Part shown: piece by piece, positions 18,858-55,791 of the stretch | Position numbering within the stretch: position 1 is the stretch's first letter | Layout of the letters: each line of letters begins with the position of its first letter | Source: a virus | Lineage: Duplodnaviria > Heunggongvirae > Uroviricota > Caudoviricetes | Virus record (IMG/VR): IMGVR_UViG_2703718809_000006 | Strand: one strand, 5' to 3' | Length of the DNA stretch: 59,084 bases | Notes under the pieces: generated by a model | The model's database searches: none | What the model was told of the DNA's origin: nothing | What the model saw: the letters and a program-made list of their open reading frames with translations, nothing else | Made by a program: the position numbers and the translations under genes

Positions 18858-19771
18858 CCAGAATCACTGAAGAGCGTATATCAGAGATTATTTCCCGTAT
18901 CGAAATGTATGGTCACGGTGCTGGATATACGGCAGATGAAGTATTGGCACTTGCCCAAATGGTTTTGGCGGCTTGCAAAGATGATAAAAAAATGAAGTTT
19001 ATCGACTTGTTAGTGAAGGAGCTGCCTAAGTGCGGCGGGTGGCCTGATGGAATGAGTTATTGTTACCTACCCAGTGTCAATTTAATGGCACCATGCGCGA
19101 CTTTTGCTTTTGGCTCAGACCACAAAAAAGACACTTTCTTTGGGCGCAATTTTTGTTGTGATATTGAGCTTCCAATTGGTGACCTTGATAGCGATGAATA
19201 CCAGTCAGTTGTCACTCGCGAACAATACGAATCAGCTCTCATAGCGTCGCAGAAAGTCGAGTTCAATGGTGATGAACTTGAAAGTAAGACTTACAGGTTG
19301 GATTTTGGGCAATGGCTGGAACAGCAACGCGGGAAAATCGATGTGGACTGTGGTTGTGTGTCCACTGAAACATTCATGCACTGGCTGCGGGTAGCTTACG
19401 AGGCTGGCAACTATCCGGATATTCCGGATAGTTCGGTGCCAGCGCCAGGAAAGGGCGTCACCGGTGAACGTATCCGCATTAAGCCGCATGTTTATCGCGA
19501 ACTGGTTAACCGTCTCCACGATACAGCGATCAAGTGTGCTGGCACCCAGCAATTACGAGAAAGAATTAGCCGTGTTTTGGGCGACGTTATTACGCCATAT
19601 CATCATAAACAAGCCGAGAAAAGCGGTCTGGAAAGGTGTCATCTTGAGGCAGCATTAAACATTAAGCCGGGGCATACGCTTGGCATTATTGATGCACTGT
19701 TGGTTCATAAGATGGCCATGGCTTTATTGTCGTTGGTGGACGCTGGTGATACAAGCGAGGGTGAAGTATGA
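18839..19771 (+). CDS. Hypothetical protein
   Basis: 310-aa ORF overlapping both neighbours. Confidence 0.45.
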   Translation: MAQKEMTRITEERISEIISRIEMYGHGAGYTADEVLALAQMVLAACKDDKKMKFIDLLVKELPKCGGWPDGMSYCYLPSVNLMAPCATFAFGSDHKKDTFFGRNFCCDIELPIGDLDSDEYQSVVTREQYESALIASQKVEFNGDELESKTYRLDFGQWLEQQRGKIDVDCGCVSTETFMHWLRVAYEAGNYPDIPDSSVPAPGKGVTGERIRIKPHVYRELVNRLHDTAIKCAGTQQLRERISRVLGDVITPYHHKQAEKSGLERCHLEAALNIKPGHTLGIIDALLVHKMAMALLSLVDAGDTSEGEV

Positions 19772-20130
19772 GAGTTGCAGATCACATCAAACACCTTGAA
19801 AGAATTATCGAAAACGGTGAACTCTTAAGAGATCAGATGAGACGCACGGCAGAAGCCAGGGAGGCGATAATCCGCAGTCAGGCTGGTAAATTAAAGCAAT
19901 TGTCAGAGATTAACACGCTATACAAGAACAGACGTAACCGGGCGGTGATGCGGCTTCAGAAAGCACGTAATGAAATTAAATTGGTGGAGGCAAAACTGAA
20001 AAAACAGATCCAGCGTTACGATCAGCAAGATGCTTTTTATGCCGCCATCAAGGCGGCTGCTAATGAAATAGGCATCTGGAAGTTGCTGGTGGAGAAAGCA
20101 AAGACGAAGTTAAATGCCAACGAAAGCTGA
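19768..20130 (+). CDS. Coiled-coil protein
   Basis: ATGA overlap with the upstream gene; K/E/R-rich heptad-like sequence. Confidence 0.45.
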   Translation: MRVADHIKHLERIIENGELLRDQMRRTAEAREAIIRSQAGKLKQLSEINTLYKNRRNRAVMRLQKARNEIKLVEAKLKKQIQRYDQQDAFYAAIKAAANEIGIWKLLVEKAKTKLNANES

Positions 20131-20205
20131 ACTACAGGTGCCCACCAGCACATACAGAAAATGATTGTTTCCACATCAAGGAGATTTTAATGTTTCACTG
20201 AAACA

Positions 20206-20343
20206 TTAAGTAAGCCAGTGCATAATTCCATTTTTTACTGACCTTAAAAGCAAAATCAAAACGATGATGAGGATAATAGCCAGAATCTGGCTAATAATAG
20301 GCGCATCTAAAAATGCACTCAGGAACTGAAAAAAAGCGTTCAT
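20206..20343 (-). CDS. Small hydrophobic peptide (45 aa, MNAFFQFLSAFLDAPIISQILAIILIIVLILLLRSVKNGIMHWLT); candidate type I toxin-like or membrane peptide
   Basis: Minus-strand ATG-to-TAA ORF inside an otherwise ORF-poor region; stop lies in the perfect palindrome TTAATGTTTCA/CTGAAACATTAA. Confidence 0.3.
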   Translation of the reverse strand: MNAFFQFLSAFLDAPIISQILAIILIIVLILLLRSVKNGIMHWLT

Positions 20344-21205
20344 TCAGGTGGTTCCTTGTCAAATGTAAAGGTGCACTTGCTCACGTTGACGTAGAAACCC
20401 AACCCCTATATAGTTGGATTCGGTGAATGAAAGTCGTTAACGTGAGCTTACGGCACATGTTTTCGGAAAAACATCAGGGAACGGCTAATTCCTTGATGCG
20501 GGTGGGGTCTGTAATGCAGACCCTATCTATTAACGTCATGATTGCATCTCAAATTTTCTCCTTATCTTCAATTAATCTACATTCATTTCATCTGTTAGCC
20601 ACCACAATATGTAGAAAATGGCCCTCTTGCAAGTGCATAACTTTGTGGATAACTCAGGAAGGAAAAAGTGGCTTTCGCGCACCTTCGGTCAGACAAGGTG
20701 TCCGGGAAAGTCAACGCAAAGAAAAAAATTGTTAAAAATAACGTTTGTTGGAATTGTATATTTCTATCCCCTTCAATGGTTAGCATTCTATTAACATCTT
20801 TTTTTAGAGACAGAAAAACATATCGTAACAACATATATACAGTATTAAGAGGCGAGTATTATCCTGCGGTGGGAATTCTGGGTGCTGTTAGATTCGACTT
20901 TCTCAGCAGGATTACATCGTCAACTTGCGACGTTGCCGTATGACTTTCGTGTAATAGGTGACAATGATGCGGCTAGTGAGTTACTTGTGAAGTTTTTCGG
21001 AAAAGGTTTTGTGGCCTCGGATCTTGATGAGCTACAGCAACATGAAGTGTCTAATTTGATTTTTAGCCATAGCCAATAAGCCTCCCTCCTCCATCAAGGC
21101 CACAATTTGTGACCTTAAACAATTTGTTTTCTGCTTTTTCTTATTTGAGGAAATAACGTTGTTGACAGCTAATAGGCTCGTTGTTGTTATACATGCCTGT
21201 ATAGA

Positions 21206-21562
21206 TTATGACCGTAAATTATTAGCGGATTTTAAGCCATATTCACCGTTGTAGAAATTACTCATGTTCCATTCATTAGGAAGTTCTTTTCTGTCCAATG
21301 TATAGTGGCGCACGATATAACGATCTTCATCTTCTTCGATGGACAGGCGGACATAGCCAATGTGAATCACCGATACGGGCGGTGTTCGTATTGCATAGAT
21401 GTCGCGGAGATATACCGGCAGCTCGACAAATGCATCAGGTGCATCTGTGATGCTCGTTTTTTCACAGTATTCATATAACGCATCGTTGATATCGTTAAGA
21501 GATTCATGATCGTATATTTCCAGGTAATTACCGCGATCACGATGGTACTCGATTTTAGCCAT
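21206..21562 (-). CDS. Hypothetical protein
   Basis: 118-aa ORF, distal gene of the leftward two-gene unit that starts next to the LexA box. Confidence 0.45.
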   Translation of the reverse strand: MAKIEYHRDRGNYLEIYDHESLNDINDALYEYCEKTSITDAPDAFVELPVYLRDIYAIRTPPVSVIHIGYVRLSIEEDEDRYIVRHYTLDRKELPNEWNMSNFYNGEYGLKSANNLRS

Positions 21563-22147
21563 TCAAAATCCCCTGTTATCGTTTTGCATTTCTCTAATCC
21601 GGTTCAGAACTACTTCGTGCTGGACTTGGATAGCGGCTTTTTCGTTTTCAAGCCGGGCAATAGACATCTCTAATTCTTTGCTGTACCAGGCGAGCTGGGC
21701 CAGGTTCATCCGGTTGTGGTCGAGAGTTGGAGACACTTCGACGCGATCCCTTTCTTCCTGCTTTAATGAGAAGAGATTTATCTCATCCCTTGAGGAAAAT
21801 TCAGCAACAATTTCTTGTTGATGATCCGGTCGCTGCGGCATCCTCGCCAGTATAAATGGCGGTTCTTTTGAAAACATGAATGTCGGTTCAGACCGTGTTT
21901 TTACCCAGCTTGCCTGCTGTCTTTCGGCAAGTTCACAGGCTTCATCATAGTTATCTGCCAAACAAAGCACGGATGGACGGTCCCACGCCCCACCATTCAG
22001 ACAATAAACTACAATTTTCCCGTCAGGTTGTGTAACCCCATATGGATGGTCCCACCAGGCGTCCAGCTGAGCTTTAGAGCGTTTCTCGTTAGGAGTGCAG
22101 TCAAAATTTTTGGGCAATACAGGATCGAGAGGAATGCGATTAGGCAT
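21563..22147 (-). CDS. Hypothetical protein, transcribed divergently from humD
   Basis: 194-aa ORF whose start lies about 135 bp from the LexA box at 22283-22302. Confidence 0.45.
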   Translation of the reverse strand: MPNRIPLDPVLPKNFDCTPNEKRSKAQLDAWWDHPYGVTQPDGKIVVYCLNGGAWDRPSVLCLADNYDEACELAERQQASWVKTRSEPTFMFSKEPPFILARMPQRPDHQQEIVAEFSSRDEINLFSLKQEERDRVEVSPTLDHNRMNLAQLAWYSKELEMSIARLENEKAAIQVQHEVVLNRIREMQNDNRGF

Positions 22148-22282
22148 AGCTAATTCCTTATTAACTGATTGGCAACGAGGTTACGCTGATCCGTTGGTGA
22201 TGAATAGTAGCAAAGAGCACAAAATCATCAGCGGTGGTTGATGTACGTAACGCGTTTGCACCAAAGGTGTCTCTTTAATGTA

Positions 22283-22302
22283 TACTGTATAAATGAACAG
22301 TA
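22283..22302. promoter_or_regulatory. LexA (SOS) box
   Basis: TACTGTATAAATGAACAGTA fits CTGT-N8-ACAG; sits between the divergent humD and 22147 starts. Confidence 0.75.
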
Positions 22303-22321
22303 TTATTGAGGTGAAAACGCT

Positions 22322-22711
22322 ATGGGCTTCCCTTCTCCTGCGGCGGATTATGTTGAAAGCCGAATTTCTCTTGATCAGCAACTAATCAGGCATCCATCAG
22401 CAACCTACTTCATGCGGGCAGCTGATAGCCATCACCGTGAGGGAATATTGCAGGGTGCTTTGCTGGTGGTTGATTCCTCGCTTACTCCGGTTGATGGTTC
22501 TCTGCTTGTGTGCGCTATGGAGGGTGAATATCGCATAAAGAGATACAGGAAGTATCCGCGCCAGCACCTGGAGGATTTAAGCACCGGGAAGAAAGAGGCG
22601 TTACCAGTAGATGACGATGGATACACGGGCAGTAATGCTGTTTTTGGTGTGATCACTCATGTCATCAATGATGCCCGAAGTGGGGAATTTGATGATTGTC
22701 CGGTTATTTAA
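22322..22711 (+). CDS. humD: UmuD'-like SOS mutagenesis protein (HumD)
   Basis: S24 peptidase/UmuD-like core; short N-terminus consistent with a pre-processed UmuD' form; LexA box upstream. Confidence 0.8.
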   Translation: MGFPSPAADYVESRISLDQQLIRHPSATYFMRAADSHHREGILQGALLVVDSSLTPVDGSLLVCAMEGEYRIKRYRKYPRQHLEDLSTGKKEALPVDDDGYTGSNAVFGVITHVINDARSGEFDDCPVI

Positions 22712-44994: not shown

Positions 44995-45027
44995 AAAAAT
45001 AACCCCGGCAGCTGCCGGGGTTCTCGT
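44995..45027. terminator. Bidirectional rho-independent terminator
   Basis: AACCCCGGCAGCTGCCGGGGTT flanked by A-run and T-rich sequence. Confidence 0.7.
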
Positions 45028-53875: not shown

Positions 53876-55791
53876 GCCGCTACCCCCGCTTTCTGGATTG
53901 CTACCAGCAGATCAGCCAGGTGGCGAGCAGCGCCATTAACCAGCTCTTCGTTTTCCTCAAAACGCCCGGCAGCCTGAAGGGCTGCAATCGCTTCCCGGAC
54001 ATTACCCCGGGCGTTACGGATCTCCGCCATGTCAGTGCTTTGCATATCCATCACGTTATTGAGATATTCAATGGCTTTATTAGCCTCTGCATCTGCTTCG
54101 CTAACCGTTTCATCAGGCTGTGCCGGGGCAGGTTCTGGCTGAGTAATCTCACCGACTTCGGCCTGCAATGCATTGATCATGCTCTGCACCATTTTCTCGG
54201 TGCCAGCGCCCCCCGGATACGCAATATTGGGGAAAGTTTTTTGAAACTGAGTTTTCAGCATTACGCGGAACTCGTCTGGTGAGCTGGTGGCCAGCTCCAG
54301 AGCTTTTTGTGCATATTTGCCAAACGGACCATTAGTAAGTGTCTTCGCCAGGAAGTCGAAAGAATCCTCGCGAGGCAATAACTTCAGGTCGTACTCACTC
54401 ATTTGCTGATCAGAAAGCGGGGTATCGTAAGTAGCAATGCCGTAGCGTGCATATTCATAATACGGGTCACCTTCATCAGGGCGCGGCAGAATTGCTTTGT
54501 TACCTTCAGGTATTGCGCCAGGGGCCGCCGGACGCATTTGCAGGGCATATCGATATGCACCTACAGAGACTTCTGGTTCAGGCGAAGAGCTACCGGTATC
54601 CTCCGCTGGTTCAGGTTCGACGTTTTCCGGTTTATGTTCTTCTGGTTGGACCAGGTATTCCGATACATTACCCGCTTTATAGGCTTTAAACAGCTTGCCG
54701 ATCGCATCTGCCATGTCCACACCCTGTATGGATTTAGCCTTGATCATGTACACGCTGCCATCCGAATCGGTTAACTGGATATACCCTTCGCCGTCCTCAA
54801 TGAATTGCTTCATTGATGCACCATTACTGAGCGTCACTTCCCCGTTCATATGCATACGATTTTTGATACTGGCAAGGCGATCCGTCATCGCGCGAGAGTG
54901 TCCACCAGTCATCCCCGCAGGAGCAATGGTATCGCGCCCACCAGTGCGATTGAGCTGATCAATCTCCGTCTGTAAACGCTCATTCTCTTCATAAAGAGAA
55001 TCCGCTTCCGATGCAACAGCGTTAATTTTCTGCTCCAGATCTACCTTCTGCCCTTCTACCGCTGCCACCTGATCCACGAGGTCGCTCATGGCATCCTCTT
55101 TCTGGTCACTGTCAGCCTGTAGTTGGGTTATTTCATCAACAAGGGCTTTTTTCTTCTTCTGCGCACGCTGAAATTTTGCCGAGTTTTTCTCTGCAAGGTT
55201 GGCAAGTTTCATGGTGACCTGCGCCAGCGTCATATCACGTCCACTCATCGGAGCAACGGTGTGAGTAACGTCTTTTTTATTCAGTAAGAACTGGAAAGCA
55301 ACCAGCGTATCGCTATTGGTGATCCGGTTTTCCGCTGTCGGGCTATGAAACAGAATGCTGATAGTCTGACCATCACTGAGCGGAATAATGGCTGGCAGGA
55401 CCGGCAGCCCGTTAACGTTACGTGCCCGGCCAATTTCAGCACCGCCGATCGCGCGCGCGCCGCTCTGGGCCACATCCCCCGTTTTATCACTCCCCGCAGA
55501 GATTCCGGTACCATTCAGCTTCTGGTTCAATGCCCGGACAAATGCCTGCATGGTCCGGTGTAACTGCAAACGAGTAGAACTAATCGCCTCCAGTAAATCC
55601 GTAGCACACCAGTGGATCGGCGTGTCATAGAAGAACGTAGCCTCGATTTCCTCCAGGGTGTTGGATTCCGTCATCAGATAGCGGTCCTCACCGGCCATTA
55701 ATGCGCGATATTCATCATCAGTCACTGGCGGGGGAAGCACGTCAAGCCCAGGCTTGATCGTCACCCCTTTATTGATATTGAACTGTTCCAT
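53872..55791 (-). CDS. darA: DarA antirestriction/head protein
   Basis: 639-aa ORF; shares the 'KNSAKFQ' segment with the upstream Hdf-like ORF; operon position. Confidence 0.6.
   Translation of the reverse strand: MEQFNINKGVTIKPGLDVLPPPVTDDEYRALMAGEDRYLMTESNTLEEIEATFFYDTPIHWCATDLLEAISSTRLQLHRTMQAFVRALNQKLNGTGISAGSDKTGDVAQSGARAIGGAEIGRARNVNGLPVLPAIIPLSDGQTISILFHSPTAENRITNSDTLVAFQFLLNKKDVTHTVAPMSGRDMTLAQVTMKLANLAEKNSAKFQRAQKKKKALVDEITQLQADSDQKEDAMSDLVDQVAAVEGQKVDLEQKINAVASEADSLYEENERLQTEIDQLNRTGGRDTIAPAGMTGGHSRAMTDRLASIKNRMHMNGEVTLSNGASMKQFIEDGEGYIQLTDSDGSVYMIKAKSIQGVDMADAIGKLFKAYKAGNVSEYLVQPEEHKPENVEPEPAEDTGSSSPEPEVSVGAYRYALQMRPAAPGAIPEGNKAILPRPDEGDPYYEYARYGIATYDTPLSDQQMSEYDLKLLPREDSFDFLAKTLTNGPFGKYAQKALELATSSPDEFRVMLKTQFQKTFPNIAYPGGAGTEKMVQSMINALQAEVGEITQPEPAPAQPDETVSEADAEANKAIEYLNNVMDMQSTDMAEIRNARGNVREAIAALQAAGRFEENEELVNGAARHLADLLVAIQKAGVAA

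Follow-up and report, generated by a model that had tools for sequence, protein, structure and literature searches.

Organization of the locus

The stretch of DNA analysed here (the window; IMG/VR virus record IMGVR_UViG_2703718809_000006, 59,084 nucleotides) is, to judge from its sequence, a P1-like (P1/P7-type) phage-plasmid. Within it, a convergent gap of about one kilobase (20131–21205) separates a plus-strand homologue of pmgV (19768–20130) from a minus-strand homologue of P7 upf93.6, 118 amino acids (aa) in length, whose stop codon lies at 21206 (21206–21562). An initial annotation had described this kilobase as poor in open reading frames (ORFs) and its layout as similar to that of type I toxin-antitoxin or small-RNA loci. 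The first description was borne out, the longest ORFs in the gap (102, 91, 79, and 65 aa) each being unconserved or a remnant. Comparison with relatives revealed a mosaic, in which a conserved module (~20140–20660) is followed by recombination debris (~20660–21205). The likeness to a type I locus was retained for the left half, where a conserved ORF for a hydrophobic peptide of 45 residues, a long structured leader, a predicted convergent promoter, and a well-folding RNA were found, and was lost for the right half, which consists of decayed genes.

Salmonella phage SJ46 is 100% identical to the window over the interval 20000–21300 and phage P7 is 99.7% identical, the difference being an IS903 insertion in P7; phage P1 is 96% identical over the left part (20142–20682). 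Across phage, plasmid, Escherichia coli, IMG/VR, GTDB, and metagenome collections the module was found in three lineages only, namely the SJ46/P7 type, the P1 type (95% identical), and a lineage of ~78% identity, referred to here as the 78% lineage. A further 34 matches to the pattern of the hairpin arms described below proved to be unrelated coding sequences.

A conserved ORF for a small membrane peptide

The 45-residue peptide (MNAFFQFLSAFLDAPIISQILAIILIIVLILLLRSVKNGIMHWLT) is encoded on the minus strand at 20343..20206 and is present as initially annotated (20206–20343), with its stop codon in a palindrome. An AAGGA Shine-Dalgarno sequence (20357..20353) lies 9 nt ahead of the ATG. The peptide has a grand average of hydropathy (GRAVY) of 1.56, with a best 19-residue window of 3.10, and consists of a single strongly hydrophobic helix, predicted to span the membrane, followed by a short basic and aromatic tail. 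In its size (<60 aa), its hydrophobicity, its predicted transmembrane helix, and its position in a gap with no other annotation, it agrees with the generic definition of the protein of a type I system.

Between the window and the 78% lineage, 33 of the 138 nt of the ORF differ, and start, stop, length, and frame are all kept without an indel; the alignment of the flanks contains 6 gap columns in the 75-nt left flank and 1 in the 35-nt right flank. The ratio of non-synonymous to synonymous substitution rates (dN/dS) is ~0.41 in this comparison, with mostly conservative hydrophobic replacements such as I/V and L/F. When copies were simulated with the same number and type of substitutions, 11% stayed open, and 0.4% stayed open while remaining equally similar and equally hydrophobic. 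The ORF is also called as a hypothetical protein in the SJ46 annotation and by PGAP (WP_000123562.1). These comparisons of sequence indicate that the ORF is a real gene.

The existing annotation of P1 reads this interval on the opposite strand, as upfM, upfN, and upfO with promoters P1/P2upfM and PupfN. The plus-strand ORFs annotated in P1 and P7 at window positions 20313–20426 and 20427–20735, within the upfM/upfN/upfO interval, contain disrupting indels in the 78% lineage, where upfM and upfN are lost, whereas the minus-strand ORF, which is unannotated in P1, is kept. On this pattern of loss the plus-strand ORFs upfM, upfN, and upfO are probably not genes. In a knockdown screen of P1 by CRISPR interference, upfN and upfO were non-essential for lytic growth, and upfM, untargetable as it has no protospacer-adjacent motif site, was listed as non-essential from an earlier deletion survey (PMC10695390). 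The non-essentiality of upfN and upfO, and of upfM, fits an accessory module.

Searches with the peptide by phmmer against the whole library and by a word-indexed protein search returned only the same three lineages, including truncated or frameshifted copies. In database copies with altered C termini the first 34–37 residues are conserved and the C termini differ, which may reflect frameshifts in an A-run near codon 37, or junctions; the differences could stem from sequencing errors, or the copies could be natural alleles, inactivated or altered. PADLOC gave no match to the peptide, and the sole match in PHROGs was weak (phrog_1184, E = 0.058). A tblastn search of phages and plasmids added a single candidate, a possible 33-aa relative on IncFII plasmids without flank similarity. 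This unannotated hydrophobic ORF (MVLLLDAFLSAPLLSQCAATVFLLLLIWLKKME), preceded by an AAGGA ribosome-binding site, lies at 2492–2593 of the record from Klebsiella pneumoniae plasmid NZ_CP080366 and recurs on 21 other IncFII plasmids of Klebsiella, Enterobacter, and Citrobacter, on one of which a DinQ-like type I toxin gene is found 1 kb away. It shares 16 of 28 residues with the peptide of the 78% lineage, including AFLxAPxLSQ and LIW, with no DNA similarity in the flanks, and may be distantly related or may match by chance through its hydrophobicity.

A captured nrdA-type promoter with DnaA boxes

Upstream of the ORF, and on the same strand, is a predicted nrdA-type promoter (20604..20654) with a –10 box TATTGT (20609..20604) and a –35 box TTGCAA (20632..20627). 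Two DnaA boxes, TTATGCACT (20640..20632) and TTATCCACA (20652..20644), sit upstream of the –35 box, so that the minus strand reads TTATCCACA-AAG-TTATGCACT-TGCAA-17 nt-TATTGT. An 87-bp segment (20614–20700) is 97.7–98.9% identical to the nrdA/ypaB upstream region in 5426 of 5426 complete E. coli genomes; it is oriented as in E. coli nrdA, reading into the 45-residue ORF, and its sequence places the promoter with that of nrdA. On this identity, the segment is host regulatory DNA captured by the phage-plasmid. The homology takes in the two DnaA boxes, the –35 hexamer, and the greater part of the spacer, and ends at the –10 box, which is TATTGT here as compared with TATCTT in E. coli nrdA. The nrdA leader is absent and, in our reading of the alignment, no convincing NrdR box is seen in its place. 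The promoter here faces the peptide gene, whereas in E. coli it faces ribonucleotide reductase. The depositors of the P1 record M95666 (the phd/doc sequence) had annotated an "nrdA-like promoter" and a dnaA box on the same strand.

The nrdA-type promoter is conserved in all lineages, and its predicted start near 20597 would give the peptide mRNA a leader of ~254 nt. Shorter, more diverged copies of the nrdA-type segment occur upstream of umuD in SSU5-like phages, Cyrano being one example.

A structured leader and a candidate antisense RNA

The leader contains an invariant UAAGGAG with mini-ORFs, two stable hairpins, and a long bulged hairpin. The strong Shine-Dalgarno sequence UAAGGAG (20564..20558, minus strand) opens a region of mini-ORFs (20474..20564). 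The AUG at 20547 starts a 3-codon ORF in the window and a bare start-stop in the 78% lineage, and the AUG at 20539 starts an overlapping 21-codon ORF ending at 20474, the peptide of which is unconserved (1 synonymous and 6 non-synonymous changes). This element may serve as a leader ORF or as a ribosome-loading site.

The long bulged hairpin (20379–20447, minus strand) has an outer stem of 13 bp and an inner stem at 20394–20421. The arms of the outer stem, GCTCACGTTGACG and CGTTAACGTGAGC, at 20379–20391 and 20435–20447, are separated by 43 nt and are complementary at 12 of 13 positions; the 13-bp stem with a large loop that had been initially placed at 20387–20455 is thus present, with one position unpaired and ~8 nt further to the left. 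The loop is not empty and holds an inner stem of 8–10 bp together with the –10 box of a plus-strand promoter. The stretch 20380–20470 is the most conserved of all, with ~4 variable columns across 17 sequences, and as all 19 pairs of the hairpin are invariant, covariation neither supports nor contradicts it.

The plus-strand promoter (TTGACG-17 nt-TATAGT, 20386–20414) is predicted to be of the sigma-70 type, with 10 of 12 matches, and faces the peptide promoter convergently. No other sigma-70 match in 19700–21700 scores as well; the promoter coincides with PupfN as predicted in P1, and is invariant in 17 of 17 distinct sequences. From a predicted start near 20421 it would produce a candidate antisense RNA of ~110 nt (20421–20531), fully complementary to the leader of the peptide mRNA and folding into three stem-loops (SL), with SL2 at 20472–20498 and SL3 at 20500–20528. 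The core of SL3, GGGTCTG-taatg-CAGACCC, is a stem-loop already noted in the initial annotation, and lies at 20505–20523 rather than at 20497–20517. SL3 is GC-rich and is followed by UAUCUAUU, which is terminator-like without being a canonical U-tract; the 3' end of the RNA is uncertain. In unstranded RNA-seq of P1vir the signal over the leader interval (upfN) exceeds that just past the promoter (upfO) ~10-fold (PMC8201110), a step that is compatible with a transcript boundary there and uninformative on strand.

Folding of the region, proposed at the outset as a check, returned strong structure for both strands. The plus-strand RNA 20421–20535 folds at –43.2 kcal/mol (z = –4.9), with none of 200 shuffles as good, and the minus-strand RNA 20597..20180 at –111.3 kcal/mol (z = –4.4). 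The same three-stem fold is predicted for the plus-strand RNA of the 78% lineage (z = –3.4). The minus-strand version of the antisense-RNA interval folds at –29.1 kcal/mol; the plus-strand fold is 14 kcal/mol more stable because five of its pairs are G.U, and this G.U-dependent gap between the modelled folds points to selection on the plus-strand RNA. Out of 42 pairs, 39 are invariant, 1 shows a compensatory change from U-A to C-G (in SL3), 2 show one-sided changes to wobble, and none is broken. A depletion of variation in the stems (3 of 82 paired vs 23 of 90 unpaired columns) was seen with the consensus fold only, and is not relied on since it was lost with the fold predicted from the window alone.

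In the loop of SL2, read on the minus strand (20472–20498), three positions differ between the lineages and a YUNR (U-turn) motif is kept at the 5' side, as UUAG vs UUCA. Motifs of the YUNR kind are a typical feature of the loops by which antisense RNAs are recognized; the point was noted post hoc and is weak.

The greater stability of the plus-strand fold and its G.U pairs could also mean that the plus-strand product is itself the functional element, as a promoter with a structured leader or as a stand-alone small RNA serving hot or umuD-type genes or acting in trans, with the 45-residue ORF incidental. The core moves together with hot, which is found downstream on the plus strand in P1-type and 78%-lineage elements alike, and the P1 annotators had already predicted the promoter. 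SJ46 and P7, however, keep the core though nothing intact lies downstream on the plus strand, a late promoter of its own serves P1 hot, and humD likewise has a separate LexA-controlled region. Such a function would also leave unexplained why the frame, length, and hydrophobicity of the ORF are retained without indels and why an nrdA-type promoter is aimed at it, and we consider it unlikely.

A role of the core at the level of DNA was also considered. The hairpin arms CACGTTGACG and CGTTAACGTG, 56 bp apart from centre to centre, could be operators of a dimeric regulator flanking the plus-strand promoter, or the core could form a DnaA-dependent element with the DnaA boxes and the AT-rich spacer. 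Each arm is nearly palindromic and both are invariant, and the DnaA boxes and an AT-rich variable stretch fall within 200 bp. The arm motif, however, does not recur in the window beyond chance (10 sites with at most one mismatch vs 5.6 ± 2.2 expected, the exact sites being the two arms only), the DnaA boxes are explained by the copied nrdA promoter, and the invariance is not confined to the arms but extends over the full 90 bp that lie between and around them. A DNA-level role is therefore very improbable.

Conservation of the module

Identity to the 78% lineage varies sharply along the module. It is 0.64, with indels, in the left flank; 0.76, without an indel, in the 45-residue ORF; 0.63 in the ribosome-binding spacer; ~0.91 in the core (20379–20567), save for one 17-nt insertion at the core edge; and 0.86 in the promoter with its DnaA boxes. 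In this alignment there are two conserved islands with a variable AT-rich stretch between them.

This pattern bears on whether anything in the gap is functional. The whole kilobase might be recombination debris, its conservation due to recent horizontal exchange and not to selection. P1-like phage-plasmids have eight hypervariable regions, of which the pmgT-humD stretch is one (PMC9603915). The right half is made of gene fragments and carries IS903 in P7, and covariation is minimal; the module is limited to three closely grouped lineages, and no further relatives of the DNA core were found in IMG/VR, GTDB representative genomes, or JGI metagenomes. The identity is, however, patchy in a manner that looks functional, with the ORF, core, and promoter all above flanks of 0.63–0.64 that contain indels, the retention of the ORF is improbable under random substitution, and the folding z-scores are –4.4 to –4.9. 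That nothing in the gap functions thus seems distinctly unlikely.

The same ORF and promoter evidence would equally suit a real but non-toxic small membrane protein, driven by the DnaA-box promoter, with an accessory or regulatory role tied to hot, lxr, and humD, and with the leader as an ordinary regulatory 5' untranslated region and no antitoxin RNA dedicated to it. The peptide showed homology to no known toxin, hot and the module move together in a 1.3-kb block, the module adjoins LexA-controlled genes, and in bacteria a good many small membrane proteins act as regulators and not as toxins. A non-toxic protein would, however, leave unexplained both the invariant, near-consensus convergent promoter with the strongly folding complementary RNA in the leader, and the better conservation of the leader than of the coding sequence. 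We regard this alternative as rather unlikely, though it carries the most weight of the four considered.

A model for antisense control of the peptide

The reading that we favour, at chances we judge to be about even, is that the module is a cassette for a small membrane peptide under antisense control behind a captured nrdA promoter, the remainder of the gap being debris. The nrdA-type promoter would start an mRNA near 20597 with a structured leader of ~254 nt and, at its end, the 45-residue single-helix membrane peptide, and this folded mRNA would be poorly translated. The plus-strand promoter at 20386–20414 would fire toward the nrdA-type promoter and produce the three-hairpin RNA of ~110 nt, perfectly complementary to the leader. 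The antisense RNA, together with collisions of the converging polymerases, would hold the peptide off. Peptide would be made once this balance shifts, for instance on activation of the nrdA-type promoter by DnaA or by the state of replication, or on loss of the element followed by decay of the antisense RNA. In this model we infer both transcripts, the RNA-RNA control, and any toxicity.

In its fullest form the model would make the module an undescribed family of toxin-antitoxin (TA) systems of type I. It would consist of a 45-aa toxin and a cis-antisense RNA of ~110 nt, with the captured DnaA-box promoter coupling killing or growth arrest to the DnaA/replication state of the host; it would be exchanged between P1-like and SSU5-like phage-plasmids, and would have gone unnoticed in P1 under three probably spurious ORFs. 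We put this forward tentatively, as possible and rather doubtful. The type I reading of the left half is plausible but unproven, because no known toxin family, RNA family, or paper matches it; no description of the genes, the peptide, or the core sequence was found in the searchable literature.

A number of observations weigh against antisense control of a toxic peptide. The comparative depth is effectively that of one deep split, SJ46/P7/P1 vs the 78% lineage, and the latter has moved as a 1.3-kb block between P1-like and SSU5-like elements. A dN/dS of 0.41 is only moderate constraint on the peptide, copies with altered C termini exist in the databases, and sequestration of the Shine-Dalgarno sequence is predicted in both lineages but with different partners. 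Covariation in the antisense RNA is thin, the single compensatory event standing beside 39 of 42 invariant pairs, and substitutions do not significantly avoid the stems of the structure predicted from the window only (p = 0.09–0.4). The peptide matched no type I toxin family in Pfam, nor in NCBIfam even at E ≤ 10. The Rfam search suggested with the initial annotation, run on both strands of 19000–22500 up to E = 1, gave no match (Sok, RdlD, Sib, IstR, OhsC, SymR, and others). The scan reported no canonical intrinsic terminator for either RNA, both promoters are predictions, and the only RNA-seq found is unstranded. The finding as a whole rests on one deep evolutionary comparison and on predictions.

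Comparison with known type I systems

Profiles of the known type I families (Hok/Gef, Ldr, TisB, ShoB, Ibs, DinQ/Dql, ZorO, and others) gave no significant match to the peptide. The predicted module resembles hok/sok, and its relatives pnd, srnB, and flm of enterobacterial plasmids, in that a folded mRNA of ~400 nt encodes, at its 3' end, a small membrane peptide with a single helix, and in having an antisense promoter in the leader that would fire to the 5' end of the mRNA and give a short structured RNA complementary to the leader. A ribosome-loading element may precede the toxin ORF in both, this being mok in hok/sok and UAAGGAG with the mini-ORFs here, and both are carried on plasmid-like replicons with other addiction genes, here phd/doc. 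Unlike hok/sok, the peptide has no Hok_Gef domain and no sequence similarity, and Rfam contains no Sok match. Some 130 nt separate the end of the leader ORF (20539..20474) from the peptide ORF, with no overlap of the mok type, and the 5'-3' pairing of the single-sequence fold is lost in the consensus fold, so that neither the mok-type overlap nor the fold-back of hok/sok was found. The host nrdA promoter copy with DnaA boxes has no counterpart in hok/sok.

As in ldr/rdl of E. coli, the predicted cis-antisense RNA lies opposite the 5' leader and not opposite the ORF, and the peptides are of similar size. The Ldr helix shows a local resemblance, L(D/A)AP(I/V)I(S/A)(Q/G)ILA, with 7 of 15 residues identical. 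This pairwise likeness was not confirmed by profile comparison with hhalign (probability 7.9%), and a relationship to Ldr was rejected; with the points above, this weighs against the type I reading. The Pfam family Ldr_toxin (PF13940) gave no match, nor did Rdl in Rfam, and a phage-plasmid differs as a setting from the chromosomal long direct repeats of ldr/rdl.

The module also resembles the type I loci linked to SOS or replication stress (tisB/istR, dinQ/agrB, zorO/orzO, and shoB/ohsC) in having a small hydrophobic peptide behind a long structured leader. In loci of the tisB/istR type, as would be the case here, expression is wired to a signal of DNA metabolism; the neighbours of the module (lxr-like gene and humD) are LexA-regulated to judge from their sequence. 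The RNAs of those loci, however, are divergently encoded and partly complementary, whereas here they are predicted to be convergent and fully complementary, and those loci are under LexA control, whereas the promoter here has DnaA boxes and no LexA box; no sequence similarity is seen. If real, the module would represent a new family within a known kind of system, the unusual feature of which is the captured host cell-cycle promoter.

Few phages are as well studied as P1, which also serves as a standard tool of genetics, and among Enterobacteriaceae resistance genes are spread by phage-plasmids of the P1-like and SSU5-like kinds. Should the module indeed encode an antisense-controlled membrane peptide, these elements would carry a second maintenance or stress module beside phd/doc, the upfM/upfN/upfO annotation of P1 would need correcting, and a mobile element would clearly be seen to time expression of its own gene with a cell-cycle promoter borrowed from its host (nrdA, with its DnaA boxes). 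If it does not, half the kilobase would still be explained as recombination scars in a known hypervariable region.

Gene remnants in the right half

To the right of the module, homology runs over ~20628–20866 to the DNA immediately preceding umuD in Cyrano, an SSU5-like phage. The umuD/humD-type upstream remnant (20701–20866, plus strand), ~87% identical to its Cyrano counterpart, includes the right half of a LexA box (TATACAGTA, 20835–20843), identified by comparison with the LexA box of the window's own humD (22283–22302), and a Shine-Dalgarno sequence AAGAGG (20847–20852), followed by a start codon decayed to ATC (20861–20863). Cyrano has a complete LexA box, a ribosome-binding site, and the ATG of umuD, whereas half of the LexA box is deleted in the window.

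From 20868 onward the homology is instead to a primase-like gene, of which the 3' third and the downstream sequence are present (20868–21132, plus strand), with ~90% DNA identity to the 3' end of a gene of phage PhiR41_1. The 174-aa product of that gene matches the PHROG "DNA primase" family phrog_849 (9.5e-54), and the 65-aa ORF in the window (20882–21079) matches phrog_17952, "DNA primase" (1.7e-37). The 65-aa ORF corresponds to the last ~65 residues (about 111–174) of the PhiR41_1 protein, the first ~110 codons being absent, and is on this alignment a pseudogene fragment. In P7, IS903 is inserted in the primase-like remnant, after 20951. The region ~20660–21205 is non-functional, the tail of a primase-like gene having been joined to a umuD-type promoter region that is itself truncated. 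The initial annotation had allowed that alignment to relatives might reveal a decayed coding gene; this holds for ~20660–21205, because relatives align there as the truncated umuD-type region and the primase-like 3' third, and not for the left half, which is a conserved module.

The palindrome at the 3' end of the ORF

The palindrome at the end of the 45-residue ORF (20187–20209) is perfect, with 11-bp arms, TTAATGTTTCA-c-TGAAACATTAA. It overlaps the stop codon of the ORF, the TAA of which falls in the right arm. Perfect inverted repeats of this kind (arms ≥11 nt, loops ≤5 nt) number 4 in the window vs 0.11 expected from first-order Markov simulations. The palindrome is specific to its lineage: in many P1-type copies it has a deletion of 1 nt, and only TTAAT/ATTAA is left in the 78% lineage. 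A Rho-independent terminator was considered and rejected, as the stem is AT-rich, there is no T-run on either strand, and the terminator scan did not report it; a conserved site was ruled out by the degeneration among relatives. As it is unconserved and has no U-tract, the palindrome is probably not a key part of the module, and is probably a weak 3' hairpin or incidental. The three other perfect palindromes in the window are at 2244–2270, 19409–19433, and 45001–45022.

Neighbouring genes and spread of the module

P1 continues from the module into hot, and SJ46 and P7 continue into the gene remnants and upf93.6. Beyond the upf93.6 homologue the window carries, in order, an lxr-like gene, a LexA box, humD, and phd/doc, the last of these 2.4 kb from the module. 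The two minus-strand genes found in place of P1 hot (21206–22147) encode the 118-aa upf93.6 homologue and a 194-aa lxr-like protein, and both sit between the module and the humD LexA box; neither has a Pfam, PADLOC, or functional PHROG assignment. A second copy of the module was not found in the window, a weak peptide match at 54800–54886 being out of frame inside a 639-aa gene, and a tRNA/tmRNA scan was negative.

The 78% lineage is present both in P1-like elements and in SSU5-like phage-plasmids, inside the 1.3-kb block that also carries hot. This block, consisting of a small ORF, the module, and hot (2119–3419 in both records), is 97% identical between an SSU5-like phage-plasmid and a P1-like element of Escherichia albertii, an identity that indicates recent exchange between two unrelated phage-plasmid families. 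In the SSU5-like phage-plasmid the block adjoins a type I restriction-modification operon.

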